From Thermofilum adornatum (GTDB taxonomy: Archaea > Thermoproteota > Thermoprotei > Thermofilales > Thermofilaceae): 32,000 bases of DNA. Position 1 is the first letter of the stretch. Every line of letters begins with the position of its first letter. A program made the translations under genes and the position numbers. The notes under the pieces were generated by a model that saw only the letters and a list, made by a program, of their open reading frames with translations, was not told the origin of the DNA and made no database searches. Location: NCBI RefSeq assembly GCF_000446015.1, contig NC_022093.1, positions 690,001-722,000 on the forward strand. Direction: 5' to 3'. Below are positions 1 to 32,000 of this stretch, piece by piece.

Positions 1-740
1 TGCCCCGGCAACGACGAAAATGACTGAGGAAAGGATAGCAGGACCCAAGCCCAATACAGCTCCCCCAAAGGAAAACGGGGCAACACGTCCAAAACCTCCC
101 TGGGCAAACTAGCCCCTGGAAAAAGCTGGGGTACAATCTGCAGGATACCGGCCAAGCTCAAAAAGACAAACCACACAGCCGTCTGGACCCCTCTCAAAAA
201 CAAGCTCCTCGTATACTTCCCCCCAAGGGACCCCGCAATATAGCCAATGCCAAAAGCCAACAAGAGAACCGAGAAAGCCTCCACCAGGCCCCAGAAAATC
301 AGGCCCCACATCTTGAAATACAGCGAGACCACTATGACCCCCGGAATCACCAGAAACGGCACCGAGGCGCCGCCAAGATACACCCCCACCAGGAGAAGGG
401 CAATCCTAAGGTCCCACTCGTCCACCGGCATAAAAGAAATGGGCTTCAAAAGGTCTTCGCTAAGAATAGTATTTGTAGCCGCAGTCACGGCGAAGGCGCC
501 AAAAAAGAGCCCGAGAAGGCCGAGAGCCCCCATAAGCAAGGGGAGCGCACCTATATCAGACAAAAACATTACAGAAGACACTACAGACAAAAAACTCATA
601 AACAGGATGCCCACGGCCATAGACCCAGAGAAAAACCCTCCAAGAAAATACTTTCTCCCAGATACCCCAGACCCAAACTTCCTAGATGCACGGTAAGCAG
701 TCTCCCTAACAAGAACCCTGGACAGCTCCCTCCAGCCCAT
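1..740 (-). CDS. ABC-2-type transporter permease (3' end cut by window edge)
   Basis: Absent from the ORF track because it runs off the window. The reverse-strand frame opens at ATG 740-738, sharing one base with the TGA of the upstream ATPase (TGATG), and stays open to position 1. Hand translation MGWRELSRVLVRETAYRASRKFGSGVSGRKYFLGGFFSGSMAVGILFMSFLSVVSSVMFLSDIGALPLLMGALGLLGLFFGAFAVTAATN... is a multi-span hydrophobic protein. Confidence 0.7.
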   Translation of the reverse strand, partial: MGWRELSRVLVRETAYRASRKFGSGVSGRKYFLGGFFSGSMAVGILFMSFLSVVSSVMFLSDIGALPLLMGALGLLGLFFGAFAVTAATNTILSEDLLKPISFMPVDEWDLRIALLLVGVYLGGASVPFLVIPGVIVVSLYFKMWGLIFWGLVEAFSVLLLAFGIGYIAGSLGGKYTRSLFLRGVQTAVWFVFLSLAGILQIVPQLFPGASLPREVLDVLPRFPLGELYWAWVLLSFPQSFSSLPG

Positions 741-1498
741 CAGAACCCCCACAGCAACCTAATCATCTCCTTAACCTCGTCGCTGAGGCCAGTAGCCCTA
801 AGAAAAACTGACTCCAGGTCGGGCGCCGAAAGCCTCTCCTTTAGCTCCTTCGGGGACCCCGCTCCCACAACCCTCCCCCTACTCAAAATAACAACATTGT
901 CAGCTACAGCCTCGGCAATCTCGAGAATATGAGTAGAAAACACGACGGTCCTCCCCTCACTTGCAAGCTTCCTCAAAAGCTCCTTGAGAATCCTCCCAGA
1001 CTCCGGGTCGAGACCATTAAAAGGCTCATCCAAAATGAGCACCGCAGGCTCGTGGAGAAGGGCCAAAATCAGCGAAAGCTTCCTCTTGTTCCCCAAGCTC
1101 AGCTCCCCACAAAGCTTCCCCACCTGGTCCCCAAGCTTAAAAAGCCTCACAAGACGCTCAATCCTCTCCCTCAAAAACCCGTTGGGAATCCCATATATCG
1201 AGCTAACAAACGAGAACAGCTCACCAGGAGTCAAACTCTCATAAAGAACAACCTCCTCCGGACAATACCCAACGATCCGCCTAGCAGAAACCGGATCCCG
1301 CACAGGGTCAACGCCACCAACCACAACACGCCCAGAATCAGGTCTCACGAGGCCGAGAGCCATCTTCATAAGCGTACTCTTACCCGACCCATTAGGACCC
1401 AGCAACGCGTGGACAACACCCGGCCTAAACTCCACGGAAACACCGTCCAAAACAACATTGCCCCCAAACCTTTTGGACACACCCTGATAAATCAGCAT
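740..1498 (-). CDS. ABC transporter ATP-binding protein (ABC-2/DrrA-like)
   Basis: 252 aa with Walker A GPNGSGKST, signature LSLGNKRKL, Walker B LILDEPFNGLD and an H-loop STHILE. Confidence 0.9.
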   Translation of the reverse strand: MLIYQGVSKRFGGNVVLDGVSVEFRPGVVHALLGPNGSGKSTLMKMALGLVRPDSGRVVVGGVDPVRDPVSARRIVGYCPEEVVLYESLTPGELFSFVSSIYGIPNGFLRERIERLVRLFKLGDQVGKLCGELSLGNKRKLSLILALLHEPAVLILDEPFNGLDPESGRILKELLRKLASEGRTVVFSTHILEIAEAVADNVVILSRGRVVGAGSPKELKERLSAPDLESVFLRATGLSDEVKEMIRLLWGF

Positions 1499-1646
1499 AC
1501 CATATCACTATATAACTAAAACTTCGACTTTATAAACCTATTTATAAATCCCAGCGTCAAACTACAGCAACTCGCCTGAAATGCCAGCTAAACATTGAAG
1601 CAAGCTCTAGAAAAACATATATGCATGTGTTACAAAAAATACATGT

Positions 1647-1889
1647 ATGGCAATCATTACCGTAAGGATCCCCGAAGAACTAAAAAAGAAAATGCGCGAA
1701 ATAGACATAAACTGGAGCGAATACATCAGATCCGCCATAGAGAAAAGAATAGAAGAAGAAAAAAGAAAAAACATAGCCAAAGCAGTCCTACTAAACGAGA
1801 AACTCAGAAAAAAATCCAAGGGCGAACCACCCGCCGAAGAGATCATACGAACATTCAGGGAAAGCCGCTATGGAGACAGTGGTAATTGA
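1647..1889 (+). CDS. vapB: Ribbon-helix-helix (CopG/VapB-like) antitoxin
   Basis: 80 aa. The N-terminus MAIITVRIPEELKKKMREIDINWSEYIRSAIEKRI has a strand-helix-helix pattern. It overlaps the downstream PIN gene by 20 nt. Confidence 0.75.
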   Translation: MAIITVRIPEELKKKMREIDINWSEYIRSAIEKRIEEEKRKNIAKAVLLNEKLRKKSKGEPPAEEIIRTFRESRYGDSGN

Positions 1890-2292
1890 CGCAAGCGTAG
1901 CAGTCAAGTGGTTCGTAGAAGAACACGGCACACAAAAAGCACTAGAACTAAGAGACCGCTACATAGATGGAGAACTAAAACTTATAGCCCCCCAACTATT
2001 CCCATATGAAGTACTAAACGTCCTGCGCTACAAACACCTCTTCACAATAGACGAGCTAAAAACAATAGGCGAAGCCCTCGAGGCCTATTCCATAGACCTA
2101 TATCCACTAGTCGGGAAACTCCGTGACACAACAATCCAAACAGCACACGAAAACAACATAACAATCTACGACGCCTCATACATTGCACTAGCCATAATCA
2201 AAAACACAACACTTTACACCGCAGACAAAAAACTAAAAAACAAACTCACGCCCCAACTTAGACAACTAGTCAAAACACTAGACGAAATCTAA
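1870..2292 (+). CDS. vapC: PIN-domain ribonuclease toxin VapC
   Basis: 140 aa with acidic PIN positions VVIDASVAVKW, IYDASYIALA and LYTADKKL. Paired with the upstream small RHH gene. Confidence 0.85.
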   Translation: METVVIDASVAVKWFVEEHGTQKALELRDRYIDGELKLIAPQLFPYEVLNVLRYKHLFTIDELKTIGEALEAYSIDLYPLVGKLRDTTIQTAHENNITIYDASYIALAIIKNTTLYTADKKLKNKLTPQLRQLVKTLDEI

Positions 2293-2802
2293 CACAAACC
2301 CCCTCCCAACCCCTAAGCAAAACATTTTTGAGATAGCGCCTCCCTTTAAGCCTTCTCCTTGGAAACCCTCCTCAGCTAACGAGAAAACCTCGACCCTTCT
2401 AAGACTCCCTAAAACTTCTCAATCCTACCGAGCCTGCTCCCCTTGTCTCTGAGACCCTCCACTCTCGCCTCCCCCGACTCCTCCAGAAGGCTTCTCAGAG
2501 CCAGAAGACAATTTTTCAAGGTGCTCCAGTATGCGACCGCGCGCGCAGATTCTACTTCACCGTCAACTTCGCCTGAGCCCACGCCCCAGCAGCAACCAGG
2601 GAAGGAATATTGTTTTCTCCCAAGGCTTCCACTTAAAAACCTCGACAATGGGGGACTAAAACTCAAATATTTTTAATGAACGTGATGGGAGAAAAGCCTC
2701 GCATATGCTACCAAGAGGTATTTCTCGCATCACCCTAAACTCTTGATTTAAGAGTTTCTACTGGGAATATAAGCAGGCCAGAAACATTAATGTTGAAAAA
2801 AT

Positions 2803-3465
2803 ATGAGTGAAAATATACCACCCCTAGAAGGCATAAAAGTTGCCGAGCTAGCCATAAAGCTACGCAAATACTTTGACACGGTTTATGGCGCCCACATCTT
2901 CCTCTCTATAGGTACTGTGATAGCATCGTACTGGATGATAATCTTTGCTACAGCTACTGTCTTCAACCTCTTCGAGTCGCTAACCTTTTGGCTTGGGGCT
3001 CTAATCTTAATGTGGGTCCTTATACCCTTCTCTATGCGGCTCGTTCCCTATCCTTCACCTATAAAAACAGCCTCTATTGTGAAAAAGCTTTCCGCCTGGG
3101 TTCTGCCATTTATCATACTATACACAGCTAGCATTTCATTAATCCTTTCCAAAGATCCTCTATTAACCGATATGGGAAAAACCCTCAACATGGGTGGCGC
3201 TGGGTGGTACCTGGCCGTCACACTAGACCTGCTTTTAAACCACTTTGTCTGGGAGAAGCAAGCATATAATAAAGGACAAATTCTAGCAAAACCCTTCCTG
3301 ATCGCAGGAGTCTTTATGCTGGCAACATCTCCGGCAGTCTACTATTTTGGACACCTATATATTGGCGCGGGAAACATCTTGGCCGTCGGGCTAACGCTTC
3401 TCGGCTACGGGATTGCCGCCTTTATCTCTATACGTAAAGCCTACAGGTGGCTCCAAGGTGCATAA
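2803..3465 (+). CDS. Hypothetical multi-span membrane protein
   Basis: 220 aa ORF with several long hydrophobic segments and an ATG start. No family recognised. Confidence 0.55.
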   Translation: MSENIPPLEGIKVAELAIKLRKYFDTVYGAHIFLSIGTVIASYWMIIFATATVFNLFESLTFWLGALILMWVLIPFSMRLVPYPSPIKTASIVKKLSAWVLPFIILYTASISLILSKDPLLTDMGKTLNMGGAGWYLAVTLDLLLNHFVWEKQAYNKGQILAKPFLIAGVFMLATSPAVYYFGHLYIGAGNILAVGLTLLGYGIAAFISIRKAYRWLQGA

Positions 3466-3475
3466 GACCAATGAC

Positions 3476-3784
3476 GTGGCTTACCTGCTCAGAAACTTAA
3501 ACAGCGAACTCTTCAACTCGAAACGCTTCATGATAGTTTCGCTACTCTACATATTTGGAAAAATGAAGCTCTCAGAGCTAAGGAAAATACTCGACCTGTC
3601 ATGGGGAGACCTAGACACCCACATAAAGAAACTAGTTGAACAAGGCTACGTAGAGCTCTGGAAAGAGCCAGGCGAGAAAAAAGTACTGGAGACAGTTGCC
3701 TACCTAACCGAAAAGGGTAGGCAAGAGTACGAGAAACTATACGACGTCCTTAGGGCTATCTCATCCCAGATAGAGACAAAATAA
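3476..3784 (+). CDS. Small winged-helix DNA-binding protein (ArsR/MarR-like fold)
   Basis: The ORF track frame is 3413..3784 with a TTG start inside the upstream gene. GTG 3476, just after the upstream stop, gives about 102 aa. The pattern MKLSELRKILDLSWGDLDTHIKKLVEQGYVELWKE...VAYLTEKGRQEY is typical of wHTH. The start is uncertain. Confidence 0.6.
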   Translation: MAYLLRNLNSELFNSKRFMIVSLLYIFGKMKLSELRKILDLSWGDLDTHIKKLVEQGYVELWKEPGEKKVLETVAYLTEKGRQEYEKLYDVLRAISSQIETK

Positions 3785-4060
3785 TATTTCTTTGTTTTTT
3801 GTACGGAACATGCCCTGCGGAGCGCGCACTACTTCCCCGTCGAGGCCCTACCAGAACAACTCCAAGCAGTCTCCCGACTACTCCCACAGACATATGCGAT
3901 GAGAATAGCGAGGCTGGCGCTCCTACAAGGCCTCGGGCTCAGCAGCCTCTGGCAAGACTTCGCAGCCTTAACACTCTCCGCCTTAATCCTGTTCCCCCTA
4001 GGAGTATCTCTATACAGGTACTCCATCGACCTAGTACGGGTAAAGACACTAGTCGAATAA
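3785..4060 (+). pseudogene. C-terminal remnant of an ABC-2 permease (no start, N-terminal two thirds missing)
   Basis: Open frame found by hand: ...ALRSAHYFPVEALPEQLQAVSRLLPQTYAMRIARLALLQGLGLSSLWQDFAALTLSALILFPLGVSLYRYSIDLVRVKTLVE*. It aligns in pattern with the C-terminus of the intact permease at 23764..24516 (LYFPLEVLPGHLRVAVMLNPPSLAVELVRRAIISG...). The only in-frame ATG leaves about 52 codons. Confidence 0.6.
3795..3800 (+). terminator. Oligo-T tract after the wHTH gene
   Basis: tttctttgtttttt lies directly after the TAA at 3782-3784. Archaeal termination commonly uses oligo-T runs. Confidence 0.3.
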
Positions 4061-4431
4061 ACCCATACAGGCAGGCCAGCGCGCCCAATACAACCTAGCC
4101 CTATAAAAACAGCCCACAGCCTCGGTGCATAGAAACTTCAGAACGCAACACTCCCTTAGAAATACCGTTACATACCGTTCCGTAACGGTAAATTTACAGG
4201 AAGCAATCCGTTATCAACATTGAATAGACAAGACAGAAAGCAAGCACCTCGAATACAAGCAGGCCCTCTCCAGCTTCGACTCCATACTAGCCACCATCTC
4301 CGCTTTAGCCAAAACATGGTAAGGATGAATACACATAAGCGTCAACTATGGAAAAACAGTGGGCGTCTATATGGGCAGGGACCCCTCAAAGAACCTGCAA
4401 ACAACTTATCCCAAAGACCCAGCCCCATACG

Positions 4432-5343
4432 CTACCCACATTCACTGCCTACGCCTAAAGTTCCTAACGAGGAACATTGTCCCCCATACTCCGTCTTCAA
4501 CAACAAGTTCTCCCTCACCAGCCCCTCAATAAGCCCCACGGGGTCCTCAACCCTGCCTACCAGTGCCTCCACGGCCTCCCCATACCTCAAAGGATGAACA
4601 GCACACGTATTCAAAAGCCACGCAACAGGGTCCCCACTGACCAGCCTCGGGGGAGGCTCCGGCATATTCAAGAGCTCCACCCTACCGGAGCCCAGGACCC
4701 CCTGAAACTCCTCGTAGGCCTCCACAAGCTCCCTCTCCGTGGGCGGCTCGACAAAGGACTCCGCAGGCGTCCTTATAGGTACAGAGATATATGCTTTAGA
4801 CAGCCTCAGCCCCCTGAGAAAAGTGGCTATGTCCCTATACACCCCCTTATCCGTGTTCACGCCCCTAACAAACATTGTCTCAGAGATCAGCGTCCCCTTG
4901 TAGGATGACGAAAACTCCCTTATCCCATCTAGGACCCTCTCCAGCACCAGCGACGGGTGCGGCCTATTTATCCTCCTCCAAACCCTTTCCGACACGCTGT
5001 CAACCTTCACCGAGACAACGTCGGCCTGCTCCAAGTCCCTACACACATCCTCCATCCACAACAAGGAAGCATTGGTCAAGACAGCCACCCTGACACCAGT
5101 CTCCCCCTTAACAAACTCTATAATCCTGCCCATACAAGCGTCCAGGGTCGGCTCACCATCCGGAACAAAAGTCACATAGTCAACACTATCCCTATTCCTC
5201 GACACGAAGTCCACAACCTCTCCAGCCACGTCCCTCCAGTCATAGAAACACTTCCTCTCAACACTCAACCTAGCCGTCCGCCCAAGCTGACAATACACAC
5301 AGCTATACGTACAAGTCTTATAAGGAATATTATTAACCCCCAA
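4432..5343 (-). CDS. Radical SAM protein
   Basis: 303 aa with CTYSCVYCQ (a CxxxCxxC cluster motif), then DYVTFVPDGEPTLD and VAVLTNASLL. The track start is TTG, and conserved-looking sequence continues upstream (see findings). Confidence 0.85.
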   Translation of the reverse strand: MGVNNIPYKTCTYSCVYCQLGRTARLSVERKCFYDWRDVAGEVVDFVSRNRDSVDYVTFVPDGEPTLDACMGRIIEFVKGETGVRVAVLTNASLLWMEDVCRDLEQADVVSVKVDSVSERVWRRINRPHPSLVLERVLDGIREFSSSYKGTLISETMFVRGVNTDKGVYRDIATFLRGLRLSKAYISVPIRTPAESFVEPPTERELVEAYEEFQGVLGSGRVELLNMPEPPPRLVSGDPVAWLLNTCAVHPLRYGEAVEALVGRVEDPVGLIEGLVRENLLLKTEYGGQCSSLGTLGVGSECG

Positions 5344-5752
5344 ACTACGGCCAAGACGCCTCGAAAAAACAGGTCCAAAAACATACCCACCCGTATAAAC
5401 ACCACCATCAATAACACCATGCTAAAATTAAAACCTTCCCCTAACCCAAAAACAAGCCCTGAGAAAAGTCTCCACAGCACTCCTAGCAATACTAGTATTG
5501 ACACAGACCATTATCCTAGCCCCACAACCGCACAAGAACAACAACTGCGCGGTGCGCGGCTCGCTGGACACACAGTCATAATGGTCATAGCCAAGCATAA
5601 AGAAATCTAGCTTGTGACACATGACAAGTACTCGCCACAAACCTTATTGTAATATTTATAAATGATTACATAGTTGCAAAGAGTTCCTCTGCTTTCTTGG
5701 GCATAACATACCGCTTCATACCAAAGAGCTAAGCCTACTAGAAATGTGATTG

Positions 5753-5773
5753 ACCCCTGGATTTCTACTGGAG
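5753..5773 (-). promoter_or_regulatory. ORB-like box a
   Basis: The reverse complement reads CTCCAGTAGAAATCCAGGGGT, which is 18/21 identical to box c. It has a dyad-like core plus a G-string. Confidence 0.55.
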
Positions 5774-5840
5774 TAGAATAAAAAAGCAAGGCATAATATA
5801 TTCTCTTTTACTCTACTCACAAGTTTTTCTTTAATATAGT
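5774..5840. other. AT-rich spacer between inverted boxes a and b (candidate unwinding element)
   Basis: 67 bp with 16 G/C by hand count (24 % GC). Flanked by boxes a (- orientation) and b (+ orientation), with both G-strings distal. Confidence 0.45.
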
Positions 5841-5861
5841 TTCCACTTGAAATAGAGGGGT
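5841..5861 (+). promoter_or_regulatory. ORB-like box b
   Basis: TTCCACTTGAAATAGAGGGGT, 18/21 identical to box c. Confidence 0.55.
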
Positions 5862-5938
5862 CTGAGAAGATTATACATGCTACGGGGATTTTTCAACCGT
5901 ATAACTGTATAATGGGGATGGGAAAAGGGGTTTAAATA

Positions 5939-5959
5939 ACCCCTCTATTTCCACTGGAG
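5939..5959 (-). promoter_or_regulatory. ORB-like box c
   Basis: The reverse complement reads CTCCAGTGGAAATAGAGGGGT: a TCCAGTGGA dyad, an A-rich linker and a GGGG string. Confidence 0.6.
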
Positions 5960-6190
5960 TTTTGGAAACGGACAAGTTCGGGCTCTTTATGGTGTTATTC
6001 ACAGTCTTCATTATCTTTTTATCTTTAGTTTAGCAGAAAAATATCTGTTAAAAAAACAGAGAATTTTCCATGATTATACAGTTTCAACAATTGCTGTTGC
6101 ATCTCTGATTTCGGAACCGTAACATAATCCTATACCTCTAATGAGAGAAACGTGAGATCAAATAGCTGCGCATTGTAGATGGATTTTTTC

Positions 6191-6199
6191 TAGCGCGCT
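6191..6199. repeat. Short form of the GC palindrome (TAGCGCGCT)
   Basis: tctagcgcgcttgaa, within the origin-like spacer. Confidence 0.5.
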
Positions 6200-6294
6200 T
6201 GAAACTGCACTATGCTTTTTAGAACCGATGTATACTATACCATACAATGACCGAGCAATAACAACCCGTATCATATGAATGGAAGCAGGTAACA

Positions 6295-6687
6295 ATGTTC
6301 CGAAAATACATGAAGGAACTCAGCCCGACAATCACGAAGGGCGAGGAACCGGGAAGCGAAGACTCTCTGCGGATTATGGTGGCCAAGAACGGCGTGAGGA
6401 CACTTGCCTTGTCTTTGCTGAGGAGATTGAAGCAGGATAAAGAGGATAATCAAAGGAAATACGCCGAGTATGTCTTGGAGGTGGACATCGACCAGCCTGA
6501 GACCGCTGCGTCGCTCTCTATGAAGATCCAGGACTACGACATGGTGCCTAGTCTTGGCTGGCTAGCCGAACCGGTGATAACAACGACCAATAGTGTGAGG
6601 GAGAATGGTTTCGAACGCACGGTCGAGCTTATACTCGAGGGTATCAAGTCTTTCATAATGAGCAAGGTAAAACTCGAAAGGTTATAA
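6295..6687 (+). CDS. Hypothetical protein (orphan, adjacent to the origin-like region)
   Basis: 130 aa ORF with an ATG start and a purine-rich stretch ggaagcaggt 5-14 nt upstream. An oligo-T tract follows the stop. No family recognised. Confidence 0.5.
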   Translation: MFRKYMKELSPTITKGEEPGSEDSLRIMVAKNGVRTLALSLLRRLKQDKEDNQRKYAEYVLEVDIDQPETAASLSMKIQDYDMVPSLGWLAEPVITTTNSVRENGFERTVELILEGIKSFIMSKVKLERL

Positions 6688-6698
6688 AAACTAAATTA

Positions 6699-6704
6699 TT
6701 TTTT
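6699..6704 (+). terminator. Oligo-T tract after 6295..6687
   Basis: aaattattttttgtag lies 12 nt after the stop codon. Confidence 0.3.
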
Positions 6705-6885
6705 GTAGTAGTATTCGGCGCTCGCTGTTTCTCTAGTGTCTTAGCTTTTTCTCTTTGCTGGCTTGATTCTTGGGCTTGGCGGTGTCCTGCTCTTGGGTAT
6801 TACGGGTGGATGGTTGGGGTGCCTAGTTTTAGTATTTGTTGTCGATGTTGTATTGGCTATATATGAAACGCACTGTGTTGACGCT

Positions 6886-6895
6886 AGCGCGCGCT
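6886..6895. repeat. AGCGCGCGCT palindrome, copy 1
   Basis: gacgcTAGCGCGCGCTtagg, upstream of the second vapB. Confidence 0.7.
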
Positions 6896-6950
6896 TAGGT
6901 CTCTTGTGTATATTTTTCACGCTGAGTATTAGAAAAGGTTTTATGTATGT

Positions 6951-6978: not shown

Positions 6979-7263
6979 ATGGCTAAGAGGAAGCTTACTT
7001 TGAGTGTTGAGGGTGACTTGCTAGATGAGGTTAAGGGGATTGTTGCCGTCAGGGGGAGGAGCTTGAGCAGTATCGTTGAGGAATATCTAGAATACCTGGT
7101 TTTCGAGAGGTGGGCTGAAGCTCTTAGCGAGGAGCTGGGTCTTGGCGATCTCGAGCCCACAACGGAATCAGAGATCTCGGGGGGCAGGCCTAGAGGGCTT
7201 GACGCGGCCGCTGTTGTTAGGGAATTGAGGGAGGGGAGGGTGAAGGATATTGCGGGGAGCTAA
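6979..7263 (+). CDS. vapB: RHH-type antitoxin (VapB-like)
   Basis: The track ORF 6763..7263 has an implausible hydrophobic, Cys-rich N-terminal extension. In-frame ATG 6979 gives 94 aa, MAKRKLTLSVEGDLLDEVKGIVAVRGRSLSSIVEEYLEYLV, which fits the RHH pattern. It overlaps the PIN gene. Confidence 0.75.
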   Translation: MAKRKLTLSVEGDLLDEVKGIVAVRGRSLSSIVEEYLEYLVFERWAEALSEELGLGDLEPTTESEISGGRPRGLDAAAVVRELREGRVKDIAGS

Positions 7264-7708
7264 AACTGAGAAGGTGTATTACTTGGACACAAGTGCACTG
7301 GTGAAGAGATATGTGGAGGAGCCGGGCAGCAAAATCATTGATGAGATCTATAGGGATGCGTACAAGGGTGTTGGAAAGCTGGCTTTTTCCTACTGGAACA
7401 TTGCTGAGGTTGCAGTTGTTTTGGACAAGTATGAGAGGAAGCTTGGGCTTGATGCCAGAAAGCTGCTGAGGAACCTGCTTAGTGAGTCTTCGACTCTCTC
7501 TAGGCTGCGCAGGCTTGTAGTTGTCAGTGTTAGTCCCTTAATCCTGCGGGCTTCCTTAAAGCTGGTGCTAAAGCATCACATATATGTTGCGGATGCCCTC
7601 CAGCTGGTATCAGCCAAAAGTATTGGTAACTGCACGTTTGTCACTGGTGACAGGGAGCTGGCAAGAGTGGCTGAAGCTGAGGGATTAAACACATTGTACA
7701 CAGGCTGA
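7250..7708 (+). CDS. vapC: PIN-domain ribonuclease toxin VapC
   Basis: 152 aa with YYLDTSALVKRY, IYVADALQLVSA and FVTGDRELARVA. The alternative start GTG 7274 would give MYYLDTS. Confidence 0.85.
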   Translation: MRGAKTEKVYYLDTSALVKRYVEEPGSKIIDEIYRDAYKGVGKLAFSYWNIAEVAVVLDKYERKLGLDARKLLRNLLSESSTLSRLRRLVVVSVSPLILRASLKLVLKHHIYVADALQLVSAKSIGNCTFVTGDRELARVAEAEGLNTLYTG

Positions 7709-7737
7709 GTGAAAATTGAGATCAAGCAATGTGAGAT

Positions 7738-7747
7738 AGCGCGCGCT
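7738..7747. repeat. AGCGCGCGCT palindrome, copy 2
   Basis: gtgagaTAGCGCGCGCTaagg, starting 30 nt after the vapC-2 stop. Confidence 0.7.
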
Positions 7748-8137
7748 AAGGACAGATGAGGATGGTAAAACTGAGTATGGGGTCCCGGTTCTCCTTTATT
7801 ATGAGGATGTGTGTATAGAGCCTTATGAATATTGAGCGTGTGGGTGGATGCGTGGTAGCCATTTGTTGGCGCGGGCTTGTGGTGATGTTGGTAGGGGTGG
7901 CCTGTTAAAGGCGTGCATGAGGGTCCGAAGGGGGTTGGAGGAGTTGTGTTTGCTCCCATGTTGCTGTTTAGGGTAAAGGGTTTTGGTTGGATATGTGGCT
8001 TGTCTGGGGTTTGTTGTAGGTCTGTTTGTTGCGGTAAGGATGGGGTCCAGGTTGATGGGTTCTTTGTGGCGCTGTTGCCTGTTTTCGGTTATGGGGCTGT
8101 GGCACGGTATGGGTTAAAATCTCTATGTGGGTGGTTG

Positions 8138-17440: not shown

Positions 17441-17755
17441 AGCTTAAGAATCATTTAGAAAGGGGGAACGTTCTTATAGAATTAGTCCTATGTATGGCTA
17501 TGTGTTTGATAAATGGTAATGCATGCGGTTCAGAGGTTGAGCCTTCGCGGAGTGATAGTCCTATTGTTTATGTTTTCTGACTCTGCTATGAAGGCAACTT
17601 TCCAAAGAAAAACATCAGTGATATATAAGTGATATATATATGAGAATTATTATATTATAGGATTGTGAAAACAACATGATAGCAATAGTGCTTGAGAAAG
17701 GCTCCATAGCGACGCCGAACCGCGATGTTGACATGCGCGCTGATATCAAGGTATC

Positions 17756-24531: not shown

Positions 24532-25869
24532 CTAGACTGGTTGGAGGTATTTTTGTGGCTGTAGTAGCCATTGCCATAGTGGGATGTATGTTATTTTTAG
24601 GTTGCCTTGTTGTTCCTGGGCTTTGAGATCCCAGGTTATTACTAGTGCATGGGTTGTTTGGAGTTCTTGGGATGCCTTTATGAGTGCGGCTTTTTCTCTA
24701 GGCTTTATTTCTGTCTTGCTCGATGCGTAGGTGACTTGTATGAGTTGTCTTGGTCTTTGTCCCTTTGTAATTACGAAGTCTACTTCTGGGCCTTCCCTTT
24801 TGCCGTATTCTCTCCAGTAGTTTAGTGTGTAGCCGTTTCGGGCTAGCTCGACTGCGACGATGTTTTCCATTAGTTTGCCGAGGTTTTCTGTAGATTCCGT
24901 GCTTAAGGTAGTGATGATGCCGTTATCTATTATGTAGGCTTTTTTGGGGTACTGTTTCCTGTTCCTGATTGTTGGGGAGTATATCTCGGAGAGGAGTACT
25001 AGGTAGGCCTGCCTGGCGCACTCGACGTATTCAATGAGTTTGGCTTTGCTTGTCCTGTATCCCAGGGACTTTGCAAAGTTGTAGAGCTTTGAAACGCTGA
25101 ATAGACCTGTCGCGCCCGTGACGAGGGCGGAGAGTACAAGGTCGAGGATGTCTGGGTCCAGCCTGCATCTTTCAACTAGGTCCCTGTAGAATATAGCGTT
25201 GTAATGGGACTTGAGGAATGCTCTTTTTTCCTCTGGGGTCTCCGCTAAGACTACTCTTGGGAAGCCCCCATAGACAAGGTACTCTCTTAGTAGGCGTAGA
25301 ACTGTGCCTCTCTCTTCTAGGTATGAAAGGGTCTCTGGGTCCCGTATCTCGGCCCTTTTCGCCTTGATAAATTCCCGGAAGCTAAATGGGAAGACTGTAT
25401 AGTCTACGCTTCTGCCCCTGAGGGCGTCTGCTATCTCTTTGCTTGTAAGCTTTGAGGTAGACCCCGTTATGTATATTTTGTACTTTTCCGAGTCGTGGAT
25501 CCTGCGGACCCACTTGTCCCAGTCGTTCACGAGCTGTACCTCGTCGAGGAGCAAGTATATAGGTCGGCTCACGTCGGGCTCAAACGTCTCATAGTAGACC
25601 TTAACCATGTCCTCGAGATCATTAGCGTCAAGCCTACGTAGCCTCTCATGCTCAAAGTTAACATAGAGAATGTTGCTCCTCGGGACACCCAGAGCCATAA
25701 GCTCGCCTACCAGCTGGAAAAGCCTATACGTCTTTCCCGCCTGCCTTGGACCCGTAACAGTGACTATATATGTCGGATCCAGGGGCAACTTGATCTCTCG
25801 TTCGACGACACTTGGAAGTTTCCGGGTCTTCCAATCGGCTAGAACCCAACGGAAATCTTCTTCACGCAT
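24532..25869 (-). CDS. AAA-superfamily ATPase of the COG1373 type (AAA_14 + DUF4143 architecture)
   Basis: 445 aa with Walker A GPRQAGKTY and Walker B LLLDEVQ. The layout is the one I recognise from the widespread archaeal ATPase family of unknown function. Confidence 0.8.
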   Translation of the reverse strand: MREEDFRWVLADWKTRKLPSVVEREIKLPLDPTYIVTVTGPRQAGKTYRLFQLVGELMALGVPRSNILYVNFEHERLRRLDANDLEDMVKVYYETFEPDVSRPIYLLLDEVQLVNDWDKWVRRIHDSEKYKIYITGSTSKLTSKEIADALRGRSVDYTVFPFSFREFIKAKRAEIRDPETLSYLEERGTVLRLLREYLVYGGFPRVVLAETPEEKRAFLKSHYNAIFYRDLVERCRLDPDILDLVLSALVTGATGLFSVSKLYNFAKSLGYRTSKAKLIEYVECARQAYLVLLSEIYSPTIRNRKQYPKKAYIIDNGIITTLSTESTENLGKLMENIVAVELARNGYTLNYWREYGKREGPEVDFVITKGQRPRQLIQVTYASSKTEIKPREKAALIKASQELQTTHALVITWDLKAQEQQGNLKITYIPLWQWLLQPQKYLQPV

Positions 25870-26013
25870 ACTGTTTTAACAGAAAACAACATTTTATTAA
25901 AGTTGTTCTAACAGAAAACAACTTTTCCCAAAAACCATACAAAAACATCCAGGGAAGACAAAGTCATTGAGACCCTATTAAAGCTCCGAAGCAAATAGAA
26001 ACTTCCCAACATA

Positions 26014-26112
26014 TGGTGGGCCCGCCGGGATTCGAACCCGGGACCCCCCGGTGTTCCAGCGCGCGGCGCGCGCTTATGAGCCGGGTGCTCCACCTGGCTG
26101 AGCTACGGGCCC
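26014..26112 (-). tRNA. tRNA-Met: tRNA with anticodon CAT (elongator Met type, or Ile2) carrying a 22-nt intron; CCA encoded
   Basis: Hand-folded cloverleaf: acceptor GGGCCCG/CGGGCCC, D arm GCTC/GAGC, anticodon stem CCCGG/CCGGG, loop CTCATAA (CAT at 26076-26078), T arm CCGGG-TTCGAAT-CCCGG. The intron is at about 26053-26074, at the canonical 37/38 position. G1:C72 argues against an initiator. Confidence 0.85.
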
Positions 26113-26609
26113 TAAGGTCATTAGTTAGAGGTATTTTTTGGTAATAAATTTTTCTTTGCTGGGCATTTACGCACTAATCAGAGAACTTGTAGGAGGCATA
26201 TAGGAGGTGTTTTGGGACGATAGCTGGTACTGTGATCTCGTTTTTAATAGGATATCTATTAGGATCACTATTAAATGAAATGGATGTATGTGATAGTGGA
26301 TTAGCATTGCTTTCGTAGCATGGCTAAATGCGAATGCTTGATGGTTATATGACTTAGGCTATTATCCCTCTTCTGAAGACTTATCGCTTTTTCTATATTC
26401 CCAGTTTCAGAGGCTATATGATGGCATGAAGTGGGTATCAATGGGCATGTTTATCTTTGGGATGGGAATAGCTCTTTTTGTTATAGTGGCAATGGAAGAA
26501 CTCAAAGAAAAAAATAGACAAACTAGAAGCAAAGCTGTCCCAGCAAATAGCCCCAGAGAGATAAAATACCCTGCCAGCTCTGTCTCGGTGTTTAGGGAAA
26601 AAGTTTTTC

Positions 26610-27941
26610 TTAGAGTTTTCTTTGTGCTTCTTTTATGGATTCTTCTAGTATGGATAATCCTGTCTCCATTTGTTCTTGTGTGATTGTGAGTGGTGGCGCT
26701 ATTCTGATTGTGCTTTGGCCTGCACCTATGACGAGCAGTCCCTTTTTGAATGCCGTGTCGAGGGTTAGCTGTAGGAGTTTTATGTGTGGTTCTCCTTTCT
26801 CTGTTACGAGTTCTGCGCCTATCATTAGTCCTTTGCCTCTTACGTCTCCTATGGCGGGTATCTCTGTCTGCATTTCTCTAAGCCTCTTCATCGCGTATTC
26901 TCCGACCCGTGTGGCATTTTCGAGTAGTTTTTCTTCTTCAATTACCTGTATGGTTGCCAGTGCAGCTGCACAGCTTACTGGGTTTCCGCCGAACGTTGAG
27001 GCGTGTGAGCCGGGCGGGAGGTCCATTACTTCTGCTTTTCCTATGATTGCTCCTAGGGGTAGCCCGCTGGCTATTCCCTTGGCGACTGCTATTATGTCTG
27101 GTGTTACGCCGAAGTGTTCTATCGCGAACCACTTACCTGTTCTACCCATGCCGCTCTGTACCTCGTCCACTATGAGTAGGAAGCCGTACTTGTCTGCTAA
27201 CTCTCGGAGCCTCTTGAAGAATTCTGGTGGGGGCACAATGTATCCTCCCTCGCCTGCAATTGGCTCTATGACGACTGCGGCTACTTCTTCTGGCGGGACG
27301 TATTTCTTGAGCATCCATTCCTCGATGAAATCTACGCACCACATGTTGCATTCTGGGTATCTCTGTTTGAAGGGGCAACGGTAGCAGTAGGGGTAGGGGG
27401 CGTGATATACTCCTGGGAGTAGGGGTCCTAGGTGCCTCCTCTGGACAGGCTTGCTACTGGTCAGCGAGAGTGACCCGTATGTCCGCCCGTGGAAGGAGCC
27501 AGCGAATGCTATGATGTATGGCCGTGTCCCGCGGAAGTGTCCCCTAGCTGTCTTTATTGCGGCTTCAATAGACTCGGTCCCGCTGTTGGTGTAGAAGACT
27601 TTCTTTGGGAAGGCTCCTGGCGTTATCTTTGACAACTTTTCGGCAAGCTTTACTGGCTCCTCGTATAGGAAGTCTGTAAGCGAGTAGTGGAGATACTTTT
27701 CTGCCTGCTCCTTTATTGCCTGGACGACTTTGGGGTGTGCATGGCCTACATTTGTTACGGCTATGCCCGAGTTGAAGTCTAGGTAAACATTTCCATCAAC
27801 GTCCTCTACCCATACGCCGTAGGCACGTTTAACGACGAGGGGGTACCACCTGGCAAAGCTCTGCATGAGTAGCTCGGAGTCTTTTTTGACTATTTCCATT
27901 GATTTGGGTCCCGGAGGGGGAACCACGATGTTTGGCTTCAT
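26610..27941 (-). CDS. Class-III PLP-dependent aminotransferase (4-aminobutyrate/ornithine aminotransferase family)
   Basis: 443 aa with YLDFNSGIAVTNVGHAHPKVV, FYTNSGTESIEAAIK, LLIVDEVQSGMGRTGK and AVAKGIASGLPLGA (PLP lysine context). Confidence 0.9.
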   Translation of the reverse strand: MKPNIVVPPPGPKSMEIVKKDSELLMQSFARWYPLVVKRAYGVWVEDVDGNVYLDFNSGIAVTNVGHAHPKVVQAIKEQAEKYLHYSLTDFLYEEPVKLAEKLSKITPGAFPKKVFYTNSGTESIEAAIKTARGHFRGTRPYIIAFAGSFHGRTYGSLSLTSSKPVQRRHLGPLLPGVYHAPYPYCYRCPFKQRYPECNMWCVDFIEEWMLKKYVPPEEVAAVVIEPIAGEGGYIVPPPEFFKRLRELADKYGFLLIVDEVQSGMGRTGKWFAIEHFGVTPDIIAVAKGIASGLPLGAIIGKAEVMDLPPGSHASTFGGNPVSCAAALATIQVIEEEKLLENATRVGEYAMKRLREMQTEIPAIGDVRGKGLMIGAELVTEKGEPHIKLLQLTLDTAFKKGLLVIGAGQSTIRIAPPLTITQEQMETGLSILEESIKEAQRKL

Positions 27942-28005
27942 CGATTTATAAACTATTAACGGTAAATATATATATTTCTATGCGAAGATTTCTACACGAA
28001 GTGTT

Positions 28006-28563
28006 ATGGATGTAACATTTGACATTATATGGCTTGGGCGGGGTGGCCAAGGCGTTGTTACGGCGGCAAACCTGCTGGCAGAGGCGTCCATTAGGAGCGG
28101 CAAGTATGCACTCTCTATACCCTTCTTCGGTGCCGAGAGAAGAGGAGCCCCGGTCTTTGCATATAACAGGATTTCTGACGGCAAGATTCTTAGCAGGGCC
28201 CGTGTGACCCGGGCAGATCTCGTGGCTGTGCTTGACCCTACTCTTCTGGAGACTTTTAGGCTTGAAGGCTTTTTGAAGCCTGGAGGGAAAATAGTGGTGA
28301 ATAGTGGGGGGAGAAGACTTAAATTGCCTAGCGGGGTAGAGTCTTACTGTCTTGACGCTGTCTCGGTTGCCGAGTCTCTTGGGCTTAGGCTCGCGGGCAT
28401 AGTGCTTGTAAACATGCCTATGCTTGGTGCAACTGCAAGGATGTATGGCGGGGTAGAGTTTATGCATCTCGAAGAAGCCGTGAAAGACCTTATTAGGTCC
28501 CAGGTCGAAAAGAATGTTGAGGCTGTGAAGAGGGGTTGGGAGAATGTCGGGAAGTGCAGTTAA
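28006..28563 (+). CDS. 2-oxoacid:ferredoxin oxidoreductase gamma subunit (POR/VOR type)
   Basis: 185 aa. IIWLGRGGQGVVTAANLLAEA...FGAERRGAPV is typical of gamma subunits. Confidence 0.85.
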   Translation: MDVTFDIIWLGRGGQGVVTAANLLAEASIRSGKYALSIPFFGAERRGAPVFAYNRISDGKILSRARVTRADLVAVLDPTLLETFRLEGFLKPGGKIVVNSGGRRLKLPSGVESYCLDAVSVAESLGLRLAGIVLVNMPMLGATARMYGGVEFMHLEEAVKDLIRSQVEKNVEAVKRGWENVGKCS

Positions 28564-28804
28564 GCTCTTGGCGAGGCCTACAGTTGGGGCTGTATCTGCG
28601 GGGTCCTGGCGAACCGAGAGACCGGTCGTCGACATGTCTAAGTGTAAGCTTTGCGGCGTTTGCTGGCTATACTGCCCTGACGGCGTAATAGAGATAGACG
28701 ACGAAAAGAAGATGCTCAAGATAGACTACGACTACTGTAAGGGTTGTGGTATCTGTGCACAGGAGTGCCCGTTCAAGGCTATATCCATGGTGAGGGAGGG
28801 GTGA
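28544..28804 (+). CDS. 2-oxoacid:ferredoxin oxidoreductase delta subunit (2x[4Fe-4S] ferredoxin-like)
   Basis: 86 aa with CKLCGVCWLYCP and CKGCGICAQECP cluster motifs. Confidence 0.85.
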   Translation: MSGSAVKLLARPTVGAVSAGSWRTERPVVDMSKCKLCGVCWLYCPDGVIEIDDEKKMLKIDYDYCKGCGICAQECPFKAISMVREG

Positions 28805-29973
28805 AGACTGTGGCTGGCAAGGAAAGACTCCTTTTGACTGGAAACTATGCCGCCGCATACGCCGCACGGGACGCAGACGTAGACGTGGTCTCGGCTTACC
28901 CCATAACTCCCCAGACGACTGTCATAGAAAAGATCGCCGACTTTATTGCCTCGGGAGAGCTAAACGCAAAGTTTGTACGTGTTGAGTCCGAACACAGCGC
29001 TATGGCTGCCCTCATAGGCGCATCCAGCGTGGGGGCAAGGACCTTTACAGCTACGAGCGCCCATGGCCTATTATACATGTATGAGGTGGTGTGGTGGGCG
29101 TCGGGCGCCAGGTTGCCCATAGTCATGGGGCTGGTTACACGTGCTCTTGGACCGCCCTGGAGCATATGGAGCGAACATGCAGATTTCTATACTATGAGGG
29201 ATAGCGGGTGGAACCTGTTCTTCGCCTCAAACGCCCAGGAGGTATACGACCTGCTCTTGATTTCCTATGGGGTGTCCGAGAACCAGGAAGTGATCCTGCC
29301 CTCCTGTGTGGGTTGGGATGCGTTCGAGGTTAGTCACACGTATGAGCCTGTTTCCGTTCTAGGAAGAGAGGAAGCTTCGAGATTCCTGCCGCCGAAGGGG
29401 TCGTTTAAGCCGTCTTTGAGTAGCGAGGAGCCCGGGTCTCTTGGAAACCTCGCCTACCCGCCCGAGTACCTGGACATTAGGCATACCATGCGCCAGGCGT
29501 CTGACAAGGTTCTCGGGGTATTTAGGGAGGCGGCGGTAAGGTATGCGAAGCTTACGGGCCGCGACTACTCGGGGATGTATGAGTGTTACAGGTGTGAGGA
29601 CGCAGATACAATAATCGTTGGCATGGGGTCCATTATGGGCGAAGCTTACAGGGCTGTTGACAATTTACGTGACGAGGACATGAAGGTTGGTGCTCTGAAG
29701 CTTTGGGTGTATAGGCCGTTCCCATATGAGGAGCTCTACAAGGCTGTCCAAAACGTGGATACAATAGTCACTGTGTCTAGGTCTTCTGTGTTTGGGAGCA
29801 TGTCTCCGATCGGACTGGACTTTGCGTCCCTGATAGCGTCTAGGGGTCTAGACGCAAAGATAGCTGACTATGTGGCTGGCGTTGGCGGGATGGATGTTTA
29901 TGCAGAGGACTTTGTTGGAATGGTTAAGGATGCTCACAAGAATACTGGTAGGAATGTTTGGTGGGTGAGATAG
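28801..29973 (+). CDS. 2-oxoacid:ferredoxin oxidoreductase alpha subunit
   Basis: The start is taken at GTG 28801 (GTGA overlap with the delta stop) rather than the track's 28744. LLTGNYAAAYAARDADVDVVSAYPITPQT is the usual alpha N-terminus. Confidence 0.85.
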   Translation: MKTVAGKERLLLTGNYAAAYAARDADVDVVSAYPITPQTTVIEKIADFIASGELNAKFVRVESEHSAMAALIGASSVGARTFTATSAHGLLYMYEVVWWASGARLPIVMGLVTRALGPPWSIWSEHADFYTMRDSGWNLFFASNAQEVYDLLLISYGVSENQEVILPSCVGWDAFEVSHTYEPVSVLGREEASRFLPPKGSFKPSLSSEEPGSLGNLAYPPEYLDIRHTMRQASDKVLGVFREAAVRYAKLTGRDYSGMYECYRCEDADTIIVGMGSIMGEAYRAVDNLRDEDMKVGALKLWVYRPFPYEELYKAVQNVDTIVTVSRSSVFGSMSPIGLDFASLIASRGLDAKIADYVAGVGGMDVYAEDFVGMVKDAHKNTGRNVWWVR

Positions 29974-30870
29974 ATGTCGCACAGGATGTTCCCGAAAGAG
30001 GAATACATACTCAAAGGGCACGCTGCCTGTCCAGGCTGTGGAGCCACGTTGCTACTTAGACATGTCTTGAAGGCTCTAGGGCCAAACACTTACCTCGTTA
30101 TACCTGCCTGCTGTACGAGCGTGATTGCTGGCCCCCATCCAAGGTCGGCGTTTAAGGTTCCGGTTCTCCACATAGCCTTCGCGGCCAGCGCGGCTGCTGC
30201 CTCAGGCATGATTGAGGCACTCGACAAGCTTGGGAAGCCAGCGAACGTCGTGGTTTGGGCGGGAGATGGAGGCACTGTTGATATAGGCATCCAGGCTCTG
30301 AGTGGAGCGGCTGAGAGGGGCCACAACATAATATACATATGTTATGATAACGAGGCATACATGAACACGGGTATACAGAAGTCCGGCTCTACGCCGTACA
30401 AGGCCTGGACCACTACGACCCCAACGGGTAATGTAAGCTTTAAGAAGGATGTCCCGTCGATAATGGTTTCCCACAGGGTTCCCATTGTAGCGACGATTAA
30501 CCCCGCATACCCAAACGATATCTACGAGAAGCTCAGAAAGGCGCAGGGCATAAAGGATGGTCTAAAATATATACATGCCTTCTCGCCATGCCCGCCGGGC
30601 TGGAGATACGACTCGAGCCTGACGGTAAAGATCGCACGTCTAGCCGTTGAGACGGGCATATGGGTTCTCTACGAGGTTGACCATGGAAAGTTCAGGCTTA
30701 CGGGACCCAGCAAGAACCTATTAGACAAAGACAAGAGGAAACCTGTTAAAGAATATCTAAAGCTTCAGGGAAGGTTTGCACACCTGAGAGAGGAGGACAT
30801 AGAGGAGATCCAGAGGCTCGTAGATGCACAGTGGGAGTCTATCGCCAAGCTGTTAAAAGAGCAAGAGTAG
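29974..30870 (+). CDS. 2-oxoacid:ferredoxin oxidoreductase beta subunit (TPP-binding)
   Basis: 298 aa with CPGCG and GDGGTVDIGIQALSGAAERGHNIIYICYDNEAYMNTG (TPP motif). Confidence 0.9.
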   Translation: MSHRMFPKEEYILKGHAACPGCGATLLLRHVLKALGPNTYLVIPACCTSVIAGPHPRSAFKVPVLHIAFAASAAAASGMIEALDKLGKPANVVVWAGDGGTVDIGIQALSGAAERGHNIIYICYDNEAYMNTGIQKSGSTPYKAWTTTTPTGNVSFKKDVPSIMVSHRVPIVATINPAYPNDIYEKLRKAQGIKDGLKYIHAFSPCPPGWRYDSSLTVKIARLAVETGIWVLYEVDHGKFRLTGPSKNLLDKDKRKPVKEYLKLQGRFAHLREEDIEEIQRLVDAQWESIAKLLKEQE

Positions 30871-32000
30871 AACCGATATAGCTAGGGCCAGGAAGACAAG
30901 TAGCAAGCCGTCCCTTGTGTTTTTCCTTGTAGCAACTGATATCTTGTCTAGTTTTTCGCCGTCCATGAACTTGTCCCTTACTGACAGGACAGTGTAGCCG
31001 ACCTCTGCCTCCTGGAGGCTGGCCAACGCGTCCTGGGCGCATTTCACTGCTTTTTCTAGGACTTGCTCTGGGTTAACGGATCCCACGGGGTAATAGTCTC
31101 TGCCCTGGTAGAGCCCAGTATAGATGTGTGTGTCGGTCGTTGTAACTATGACTGTGTCTGCCATGTTGCCCAGCCTCGACACAAGCCTTGCCTTGAAGTC
31201 GGGCTCCATATTGTTACCGTCGAAGGACGCCACTAGGAACCTTTTCCCTCCTATGCTTATTGCGGCGCAAGCTATGCCTGCGGGTCCAATGGTTATATTG
31301 TCTGTATAGTCTATGCTCGAGAAGCCTGCCTGTATCTTTCCCTCAGTTATCTTGTTCTCGGTAGCGGTCCTCACGGCGGCTATTATTTTTGCTATCTCGT
31401 CTTCTTGTTCGTTTTCAATCTTTAGGAAGCCGTCTGCGATCATGTTGTGATTGTCGACTGTGACTGTGCCTAGCTCTTCTAGCGAAAGCTCTGAGACCCT
31501 GTATGGGAGGTCCTCCATTATAACTATGGGGTCTAAAAATGCTAGTCTTGGTATGTCTCCGAATCCTAAGACCGTTATCCTAAGGAGGCTCGTTGTATAT
31601 TCCCCAGCCCACCCGGAGCTAGCACGTGGCTGTACCTGTGCTCCGCATATTGCGCTGGCCACCCGACTTGTAGCTTCAACCGTAGCTAGGTTCTCGGAGT
31701 GCGCAACTGGTGCCTTGAGGAATAATACAGGAACTTTTGAGCACTGTTTTACAAGCTGGGGTAGGGTGCTACTTCCAAGTGTCCTCAATGGTCCAGGATG
31801 CACGTTTGAAACGACGAGTCTGCCAATTTCCTGGCCACGGCTGTGGAAGGAGTAGATGTGTATGGGTAGTGTCCTCTCTGTTGATATTTTTTCGAGGTAC
31901 TTTTCTACGTCTATGTGGTCGCCTGAAAGGATGTATCTGAGAAAGGCTTCGAGGAAGCCGAGGCTACTCACACCAGCGATTCTCCTTATCCTGCTGTCGA
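30853..32000 (-). CDS. Conserved-looking archaeal protein with C-terminal membrane anchor (5' end beyond window)
   Basis: The frame stays open upstream of the track's GTG 31971 to the window edge. The C-terminus is the hydrophobic GLLLVFLALAISVLLLLF. It may be DUF2070-like, but I cannot verify that. Its 3' end overlaps the beta-subunit gene by 18 nt. Confidence 0.6.
   Translation of the reverse strand, partial: DSRIRRIAGVSSLGFLEAFLRYILSGDHIDVEKYLEKISTERTLPIHIYSFHSRGQEIGRLVVSNVHPGPLRTLGSSTLPQLVKQCSKVPVLFLKAPVAHSENLATVEATSRVASAICGAQVQPRASSGWAGEYTTSLLRITVLGFGDIPRLAFLDPIVIMEDLPYRVSELSLEELGTVTVDNHNMIADGFLKIENEQEDEIAKIIAAVRTATENKITEGKIQAGFSSIDYTDNITIGPAGIACAAISIGGKRFLVASFDGNNMEPDFKARLVSRLGNMADTVIVTTTDTHIYTGLYQGRDYYPVGSVNPEQVLEKAVKCAQDALASLQEAEVGYTVLSVRDKFMDGEKLDKISVATRKNTRDGLLLVFLALAISVLLLLF

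Follow-up and report, generated by a model that had tools for sequence, protein, structure and literature searches.

The window analysed here is a 32,000-nucleotide (nt) stretch of Thermofilum adornatum DNA (assembly GCF_000446015.1, contig NC_022093.1, positions 690,001–722,000 of the forward strand). It consists of two arms of opposite strand composition, which meet at an AT-rich non-coding gap carrying a cluster of origin recognition box (ORB)-like sequences. Thirty-one genes were curated by hand, 20 of which were scanned against Pfam, several without a family; the scanned set covers most − strand genes to the right of the compositional flip and most + strand genes to its left. Keto skew is defined as (G+T−A−C)/N on the + strand, and values for third codon positions and four-fold degenerate sites are likewise given as on the + strand. 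The features that concern the asymmetry are the following:

1–5670, left arm: + strand A+C-rich, keto skew −0.25; the − strand would be the G+T-rich leading-strand sequence of a leftward fork
1647–2292, + strand: vapBC-1, in the left arm, third-position keto skew −0.63 and −0.72 (vapC-1)
5671–6294, no strand: AT-rich non-coding gap in which the skew changes sign, a candidate replication origin
6701–32000, right arm: + strand G+T-rich, keto skew +0.18
6982–7708, + strand: vapBC-2, in the right arm, third-position keto skew +0.40 and +0.28 (vapC-2)
7709–8137: 429 nt without a plausible gene, with the most extreme skew of the window (GC skew +0.53, keto skew +0.42)
24532–27941, − strand: an AAA_14/DUF4143 ATPase and a class-III aminotransferase, lagging genes on the right arm under the reading proposed below, four-fold keto skew +0.44 and +0.59

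On the + strand, the keto skew of positions 1–5600 is −0.256 (GC skew −0.262, (T−A)/(T+A) −0.251, purine skew 0.00) and that of positions 6701–32000 is +0.181 (GC skew +0.186, (T−A)/(T+A) +0.175, purine skew 0.005). The left/right keto contrast of 0.44 would correspond to more than 30 standard errors, given binomial standard errors of about 0.013 and 0.006. An earlier sequence-only reading had described opposite A+C and G+T compositions from seven 60-nt rows, all of which proved exact on recount, and had placed a flip, blind to gene orientation, between 5.6 and 6.7 kb. A piecewise segmentation made blind on the keto signal places the change of sign at window position 5670.

The sign of the keto skew does not track the coding strand of the curated window genes. 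Specifically, third-position keto skew is −0.41 in + strand genes and −0.57 in − strand genes left of the flip, and +0.34 and +0.32, respectively, right of it (window positions 16,707–17,580 were excluded from the codon statistics). The two vapBC pairs, which share one orientation, differ across the flip, as had been noted from the sequence. Uncalled and intergenic DNA is skewed by strand as the genes are: the non-coding stretches that had been named as following the rule do so, with a keto skew of −0.41 at 5344–5600 and the positive extreme listed above at 7709–8137. Furthermore, four-fold sites were split into a strand component r, the mean of + and − strand genes, and a coding-strand component s. 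In the window, r comes to −0.49 for the left arm and to +0.33 and +0.40 for the two right-arm halves, with |s| at most 0.13; across the regions of the larger skewed block to which the window belongs, |s| is at most 0.15 (s about −0.1 to −0.15). Only the purine skew of codon position 1 tracks the coding strand (+0.26 to +0.32), as in any genome. At third positions and four-fold sites alike, re-orienting the genes to their coding strand leaves the asymmetry in place.

These data bear on explanations that start from the genes, namely a coding-strand or transcription bias, codon selection combined with an orientation bias, or selection for polar G/T motifs. The orientation of right-arm genes, 20 of 25 of which lie on the + strand and so run with a rightward fork, speaks for this view, as do the modest coding-strand component and the departure of Alba and POR genes from the local strand skew. 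As the main cause it is nevertheless refuted, and we find it scarcely credible in that role: right-arm − strand genes and left-arm + strand genes carry the + strand skew of their neighbours, the left-arm genes have no orientation bias and yet a skew at least as strong as that on the right, and intergenic DNA follows the strand. K-mer skews (k = 2–4) in the block are predicted by single-base frequencies (correlation r = 0.94–0.98), therefore indicating a base-level bias rather than selection for polar motifs. A skew driven by motifs similar to FtsK-orienting polar sequences (KOPS) was rejected, as no motif exceeds single-base expectation. The attribution of the asymmetry to a strand-specific mutational bias rather than to codon selection is thus upheld by four-fold and non-coding sites, by the k-mer skews and by the polarised C>T changes described below. 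Oriented as leading strand, the composition of the block is A.208, C.199, G.290 and T.303.

Two sets of highly expressed genes deviate from this pattern. The genes for POR delta, alpha and beta (window 28,544–30,870) are weak spots of the right arm, with four-fold keto skews of 0 to +0.15. Alba, in DNA that extends the window to the left (L001 3243–3524; L146 8791–9072), is strongly A/C-ending on its coding strand and has a reversed four-fold skew of +0.64. These deviations suggest translational selection for A/C-ending codons, which opposes or reinforces the mutational bias.

The skew changes sign in a gap of low GC content. Windows of 400 nt starting at 5700–6100 have a GC content of 0.35–0.45 (0.35–0.36 for those starting at 5700–5900), compared with 0.49 for the whole window. 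The + strand of 5610–6295 contains no open reading frame (ORF) of at least 60 aa, and the − strand there contains just two short ORFs of 60 aa each. Three ORB-like boxes lie in the gap:

5752–5774, − strand: ORB-like box 1, GACCCCTGGATTTCTACTGGAGT
5842–5862, + strand: ORB-like box 2, TCCACTTGAAATAGAGGGGTC, inverted relative to boxes 1 and 3
5939–5960, − strand: ORB-like box 3, ACCCCTCTATTTCCACTGGAGT, which includes the 13-mer ATTTCCACTGGAG
The cluster in other coordinates: between 1,624,262 and 1,636,233 of CP007493.1 (strain 1505); in strain 1910b, about 28 kb upstream of cdc6 AGT35192

The spacer between boxes 1 and 2 is 69 nt long and very AT-rich, and the arms of the boxes are 81–90% complementary. 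The 13-mer ATTTCCACTGGAG is identical to the P. furiosus ORB2 and mini-ORB oligonucleotides bound by Cdc6/Orc1 (PMC1904270), and the canonical archaeal oriC consists of inverted ORBs around an AT-rich spacer (PMC4010727). On the loci L024, L025 and L016, the ORB region recurs at 90–92% identity together with the same flip. The strand that runs 5′ to 3′ away from the gap is G+T-rich on both sides; the skew passes from negative to positive across the gap and therefore has the polarity of a bacterial leading strand. Taken together, we consider it probable, judging from the sequence, that the window contains a previously unrecognised candidate ORB-type origin of T. adornatum, and that the asymmetry is the mutational footprint of bidirectional replication from that origin, at window 5.67–6.29 kb. 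The ORB cluster would then fire in vivo.

A 3C-seq (chromosome conformation capture) preprint lists four Ori-Finder2 origins for T. adornatum 1910b. Comparison with the printed sequences indicates that the ORB cluster at 5752–5960 is not among them. By sequence match, 'Origin 3' of the preprint is the tRNA-bearing region upstream of cdc6, at about window 33,312–33,653, and the ORB cluster lies about 28 kb upstream of it (523 kb, in shifted coordinates). The 'ORB' hits of Origin 3 seem to fall inside the tRNA gene, Origin 1 looks like rRNA sequence, and Origins 1, 2 and 4 seem to coincide in part with an rRNA gene or tRNA genes. A link of the origin to the 3C contact map was considered and dropped: the secondary diagonal crosses the main one at 750–1000 kb and 1700–100 kb, with no obvious coincidence.

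The ORB cluster is flanked by a radical-SAM gene and by a gene for a 130-aa protein without a Pfam family. The latter (window 6295–6687, to the right of the boxes) is conserved alongside vapBC-2 in the same species, on five short contigs. The best matches of the radical-SAM gene (4432–5343) among GTDB species representatives are from Desulfurococcaceae (69–78% identity), with no match from Thermofilaceae among those representatives, and the gene may have been acquired horizontally; it is fully skewed (third-position keto skew −0.52). A single mini-ORB-like box (CTTCTACTGGAT) lies just upstream of the orc1/cdc6 start both in T. adornatum (L012 ~15,620–15,640) and in T. pendens (L020 ~9,974–9,995), and may be an autoregulatory Orc1 site.

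In the mechanism that we propose, the strand carrying nascent-leading-strand sequence would be the parental lagging-strand template, which is transiently single-stranded, and that strand would gain T and G and lose C and A, mainly by C>T changes of deamination type. The bias would strike DNA regardless of transcription, and genes on opposite strands would therefore receive opposite synonymous-site compositions. Cytosine deamination on a transiently single-stranded lagging-strand template is expected to give C>T on the leading-strand sequence, and we infer that the underlying chemistry is deamination of this template.

Single-nucleotide polymorphisms (SNPs) at third-position and non-coding sites show a C>T asymmetry of this polarity at present. 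Five to seven strains of 97.6–99.9% identity were aligned, and singletons were taken as derived; this polarisation is imperfect, and the power of the data is limited. Per site, C>T is more frequent on the leading-strand sequence than on its complement by 1.6-fold in the left arm, 1.55-fold in the right arm and 1.5-fold in the right flank outside the block, and, with polarity assigned from the flip, a stratified test yields z = 3.19 (p = 0.0014). In the left arm, amino-to-keto and keto-to-amino changes are balanced (62 vs 62), and the equilibrium keto skew of the spectrum, −0.22 (−0.39 to −0.02), reproduces the observed −0.21. In the right flank, the counts are 64 vs 50, with an equilibrium of +0.07 (−0.15 to +0.26) and an observed skew of −0.01; the flank, if anything, is gaining G+T. 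The SNP data show no stronger asymmetry inside the block than outside it.

The strong skew extends well beyond the window. Around the origin, |r| forms a plateau of 0.29–0.49 that reaches at least 23 kb to the left and 26.5 kb to the right, so that the block measures at least 50 kb; this size is a lower bound because the left boundary was not reached, and the sample of DNA outside the block comes to about 48 kb in all. In the left extension (L001/L146), r is −0.32 to −0.43 for at least 17 kb more. Housekeeping genes on both strands share the skew there, with four-fold values of −0.52 for KsgA, −0.57 for L37ae, −0.20 for SBDS, −0.38 for proteasome alpha, and −0.51 and −0.33 for two exosome RNase PH subunits. 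The crenactin of this extension is 99% identical to a cluster (90% identity) with AGT35143.1 and AJB42855.1 (strains 1910b and 1505), and PORgamma has an identical copy on CP007493.1 (strain 1505, 1,754,190 bp). The left extension also contains a reversed patch of about 3 kb, the arcadin/SMC-like gene of the crenactin cluster (L146 12,148–14,538, about window −9.2 to −11.6 kb), which has a four-fold skew of +0.30, as would be expected after a recent inversion or a move from the other arm.

On the right side, r runs +0.33, +0.40 and +0.29, and in six other strains the four-fold skew stays high through DUF2070 (+0.31 to +0.35). Past DUF2070 it is −0.09 for SpoU, −0.01 for Cdc6 and +0.12 for the GPN-ATPase, and the segmentation gives +0.003 for window 29,971–38,470; the right arm ends at the junction between DUF2070 and SpoU, about 0.5 kb past the window. 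There is no gradient of |r| with distance inside the block, which is flat and then drops abruptly. Outside the block, the skew is weaker by a factor of 3 to 10, and on the right at least it keeps its polarity. The strong skew thus belongs to the 50 kb or more that surround the origin and not to a whole replichore. AAA_14 paralogues were tried as probes of the distant genome and led to two contigs that belong to other organisms (GC 0.38 and 0.59).

Several observations weigh against a replication footprint in its simplest form. The value of r falls to +0.08 at 27–33 kb, so there is no extension over a whole replichore as in classical skew; it is +0.17 at about 50–70 kb right of the origin (CP007493.1 1.671–1.693 Mb) and about 0.04 (a magnitude, whatever the orientation of the locus relative to the window) at the ribosomal-protein locus at roughly −80 kb, some 70–90 genes left of crenactin. 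The A>G versus T>C asymmetry disagrees between the arms, being 1.7-fold on the left and 0.75-fold on the right (1.2-fold in the right flank). In the right arm, changes run on balance from keto to amino (71 amino-to-keto vs 101 keto-to-amino changes, p = 0.027; in a second pile-up, 106 vs 159, p = 0.0014), and the spectrum of this arm has an equilibrium of +0.07 (−0.15 to +0.24) as against +0.30 observed; there is therefore no clear sign that its skew is maintained at present. The ORB cluster has no orc1/cdc6 gene beside it; the nearest lies about 28 kb away at about window 33.65 kb, that is, about 1.65 kb past the right end of the window.

For the confinement, the replication-footprint reading would invoke history: in a heavily rearranged chromosome, only the block would have kept a constant orientation to the origin for long enough to reach equilibrium, and full equilibrium skew would need that orientation to be kept for about one neutral substitution per site. 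We tentatively prefer this account. The proteasome-SBDS-exosome and hydrogenase-PEP synthase-TrpRS blocks lie on swapped sides of cdc6 in T. adornatum (L146/L152) and T. pendens (L020), which indicates several large rearrangements around the cdc6 locus; T. pendens synteny around cdc6 breaks exactly at the right boundary region. These synteny differences and the reversed skew of the arcadin/SMC-like gene fit a rearrangement history. The three samples outside the block count against it, since they show weak skew rather than strong skew of mixed sign.

An origin-proximal special mode of replication could instead account for the confinement: in the roughly 25 kb on either side of the origin, the template of the lagging strand would be exposed far longer or more often than elsewhere, through delayed lagging-strand priming or strand-displacement-like synthesis once initiation has occurred, repeated abortive initiation, or forks that pause at defined barriers. 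Asymmetric mutations tied to replication would in that case prevail in this stretch alone. The plateau is centred on the origin with a similar reach on the two sides (at least 23 kb left, 26.5 kb right), the fall at the right edge is abrupt, and the strand components of the three samples from beyond the block are lower by the factors given above. Moreover, in a scan of ORB-motif loci in metagenomes (at least 120), only two among the matches listed, 90–92% identical to the origin, flip comparably; some 118 others among those matches do not, so the flip is not a generic property of ORBs. On the other side, the present C>T asymmetry is no larger inside the block (1.55–1.6-fold) than just outside (1.5-fold), skew within the block shows no distance gradient, the right arm looks out of equilibrium rather than actively maintained, and the right boundary falls at a gene junction near the T. 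pendens synteny break. We therefore judge a special mode possible but unlikely. We hold it similarly unlikely that a 'hyper-skew' domain of about ±25 kb stems from a replication mode peculiar to the vicinity of this one origin. If true, such a domain would record initiation dynamics in the form of mutations, which has been described for no archaeon, and the true principal origin of T. adornatum would be one that published predictions missed.

The out-of-equilibrium right arm also bears on whether the asymmetry is a relic, the remainder of a once much stronger, genome-wide one, caused for instance by a temporary repair defect, that is now decaying everywhere and is best kept in the block. The keto-to-amino flux and the low equilibrium of the right arm, together with a present spectrum that is similar inside and outside the block on the right, are consistent with decay. 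The balanced left arm, whose spectrum reproduces its observed skew, is not. Furthermore, neutral diversity is 5.9% singletons per site in the right arm versus 5.1% outside, so slower decay near the origin is not evident, and the radical-SAM gene is fully skewed though its closest database relatives are unskewed Desulfurococcaceae copies. A relic is, on this evidence, quite improbable.

Relatives lack the strong skew. At the Cdc6 loci of T. pendens Hrk5 and Infirmifilum sp. NZ, r is −0.05 and −0.01, with no flip, and Desulfurococcaceae loci, an unskewed crenarchaeal baseline, have only ordinary coding-strand skew. Five housekeeping genes of the T. adornatum block adjoin cdc6 in T. pendens, where their third-position skew is mostly near zero; the T. 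adornatum copies lean to A+C at position 3 and, slightly, at positions 1+2. Given these unskewed T. pendens and Infirmifilum counterparts, the bias therefore arose in situ in this lineage. A search for Orc1/Cdc6 paralogues, sought as a route to other origins, yielded only orthologues, on which the comparison with T. pendens and Infirmifilum was then based.

The alternative that the block is a captured foreign replicon (a plasmid, a virus or a large imported chromosomal fragment), with its own origin and skew, would fit a skew that forms one discrete block around a central origin, the abundance of toxin-antitoxin and ABC-transporter genes, and a gene content that varies between strains; origin capture is an established idea for crenarchaeal chromosomes (Robinson & Bell 2007). 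We hold it to be very unlikely. The block carries fully skewed universal single-copy genes (L37ae, KsgA, exosome, SBDS and proteasome alpha), and the identity of its housekeeping genes to T. pendens, 0.77–0.87, matches that of genes outside it (0.50–0.92). PLSDB gave no plasmid similarity, no Thermofilum-like viral contig with this ORB was found, and no integrase was recognised among the ORFs examined, the left block boundary lying outside the sampled DNA. As to variable content, the ABC-transporter/FmdE/permease blocks at about window 10.9–20.9 and 21.5–24.5 kb are absent from strain 1505 (CP007493.1) and variable in metagenomic strains, and strain 1505 also departs from the window in the DNA to the left of vapBC-2.

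In kind, the asymmetry is the well-known replication-associated compositional skew. In bacteria, the leading strand has G>C and T>A, as in Borrelia, Chlamydia and Lawsonia, where codon usage is shaped as well. The T. adornatum block resembles bacterial skew in its sign switch at a candidate origin, its G+T-rich leading-strand sequence, its effect on synonymous and intergenic sites whatever the gene orientation, its C>T asymmetry in polymorphism, and the small directional shift at codon positions 1+2 of orthologues. It differs in its crenarchaeal host and ORB/Orc1-type origin, in a TA skew as strong as or stronger than the GC skew, and in a strong form that spans a block of at least 50 kb rather than a whole replichore to the terminus. 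In vertebrate mitochondria, the H strand owes its G+T richness to C>T and A>G deamination in the single-stranded state. Similar to the mitochondrial case, the T. adornatum asymmetry is purely keto/amino, with about equal GC and TA skews, no purine skew and an amplitude of the same order, and the left arm has an excess of both C>T and A>G; unlike it, the pattern is bidirectional with a flip at the origin, has no distance gradient and lacks the A>G excess on the right arm. Human 'N-domains' share the upward jump of total (TA+GC) skew at an origin and Orc/MCM-type replication, with a skew amplitude about an order of magnitude below that of T. adornatum; their linear decay to the next origin differs from the plateau and drop seen here. 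The gap itself shares with Pyrococcus oriC, Sulfolobus oriC1 and Aeropyrum oriC1 an AT-rich intergenic region, inverted ORB boxes, a TTCCA..GGA core and a G-string. Unlike these, it has no adjacent orc1/cdc6; the single mini-ORB-like box is found upstream of the gene, about 28 kb off.

What is new is the amplitude in an archaeon, the anchoring on a candidate ORB origin missed by published predictions, and the restriction of the strong skew to a block of at least 50 kb. Descriptions of archaeal chromosomes usually grant them little replication skew or none, and the signals from which origins are predicted are often weak. To our knowledge, a synonymous-site asymmetry this large is otherwise known only from the most skewed bacteria and from mitochondria. 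The impression that the asymmetry exceeds what is expected of an archaeon agrees with published GC-skew indices, which are below 0.05 in most archaeal genomes and at most 0.122 (PMC2684130), and archaeal replicative asymmetries have been described as weak and often 'inverted' (PMC3269017). The T. adornatum literature that was searched contains no mention of skew. The skew gives a sharp, testable origin call. It could also serve as a natural read-out of strand-specific, deamination-type mutagenesis by a eukaryote-like replication machinery at 80 °C, the growth optimum of T. adornatum (PMC6965361), and the fact that it is spatially confined could carry information about fork dynamics or about the rate at which the chromosome is rearranged.

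Codon usage is distorted by the skew, and amino-acid usage is slightly shifted. Gene callers can also be misled by the long spurious antisense ORFs with which the skew is associated. The sequence-only reading had taken long stop-free antisense ORFs for a side effect of the asymmetry, and the association holds: an antisense stop-free run of at least 70% of the gene length is found for 9 of 27 genes in the block, compared with 1 of 28 elsewhere in the same species and 1 of 12 in T. pendens. Causation by the skew is plausible but not separated from the slightly higher GC content of the block, 0.49 against 0.46–0.47 elsewhere.

Further observations concern small elements of the window. In a 90%-identical relative, an insert of about 4 kb (L024 ~1,600–5,500) lies beside the ORBs, between window positions 5459 and 5728. 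This insert carries about 105 nt that are 91% identical to window 26,452–26,557, an intergenic stretch near the tRNA and aminotransferase genes, and the shared stretch may be a small repeated or mobile sequence. The tRNA gene contains an intron (window 26,014–26,112, − strand; Rfam 54 bits), and its anticodon was not assigned by ARAGORN. Finally, the segment 16,707–17,580 contains three overlapping + strand ORFs in different frames, encoding membrane-protein-like products of 170, 152 and 130 aa, which together look like a frameshifted or decaying gene.

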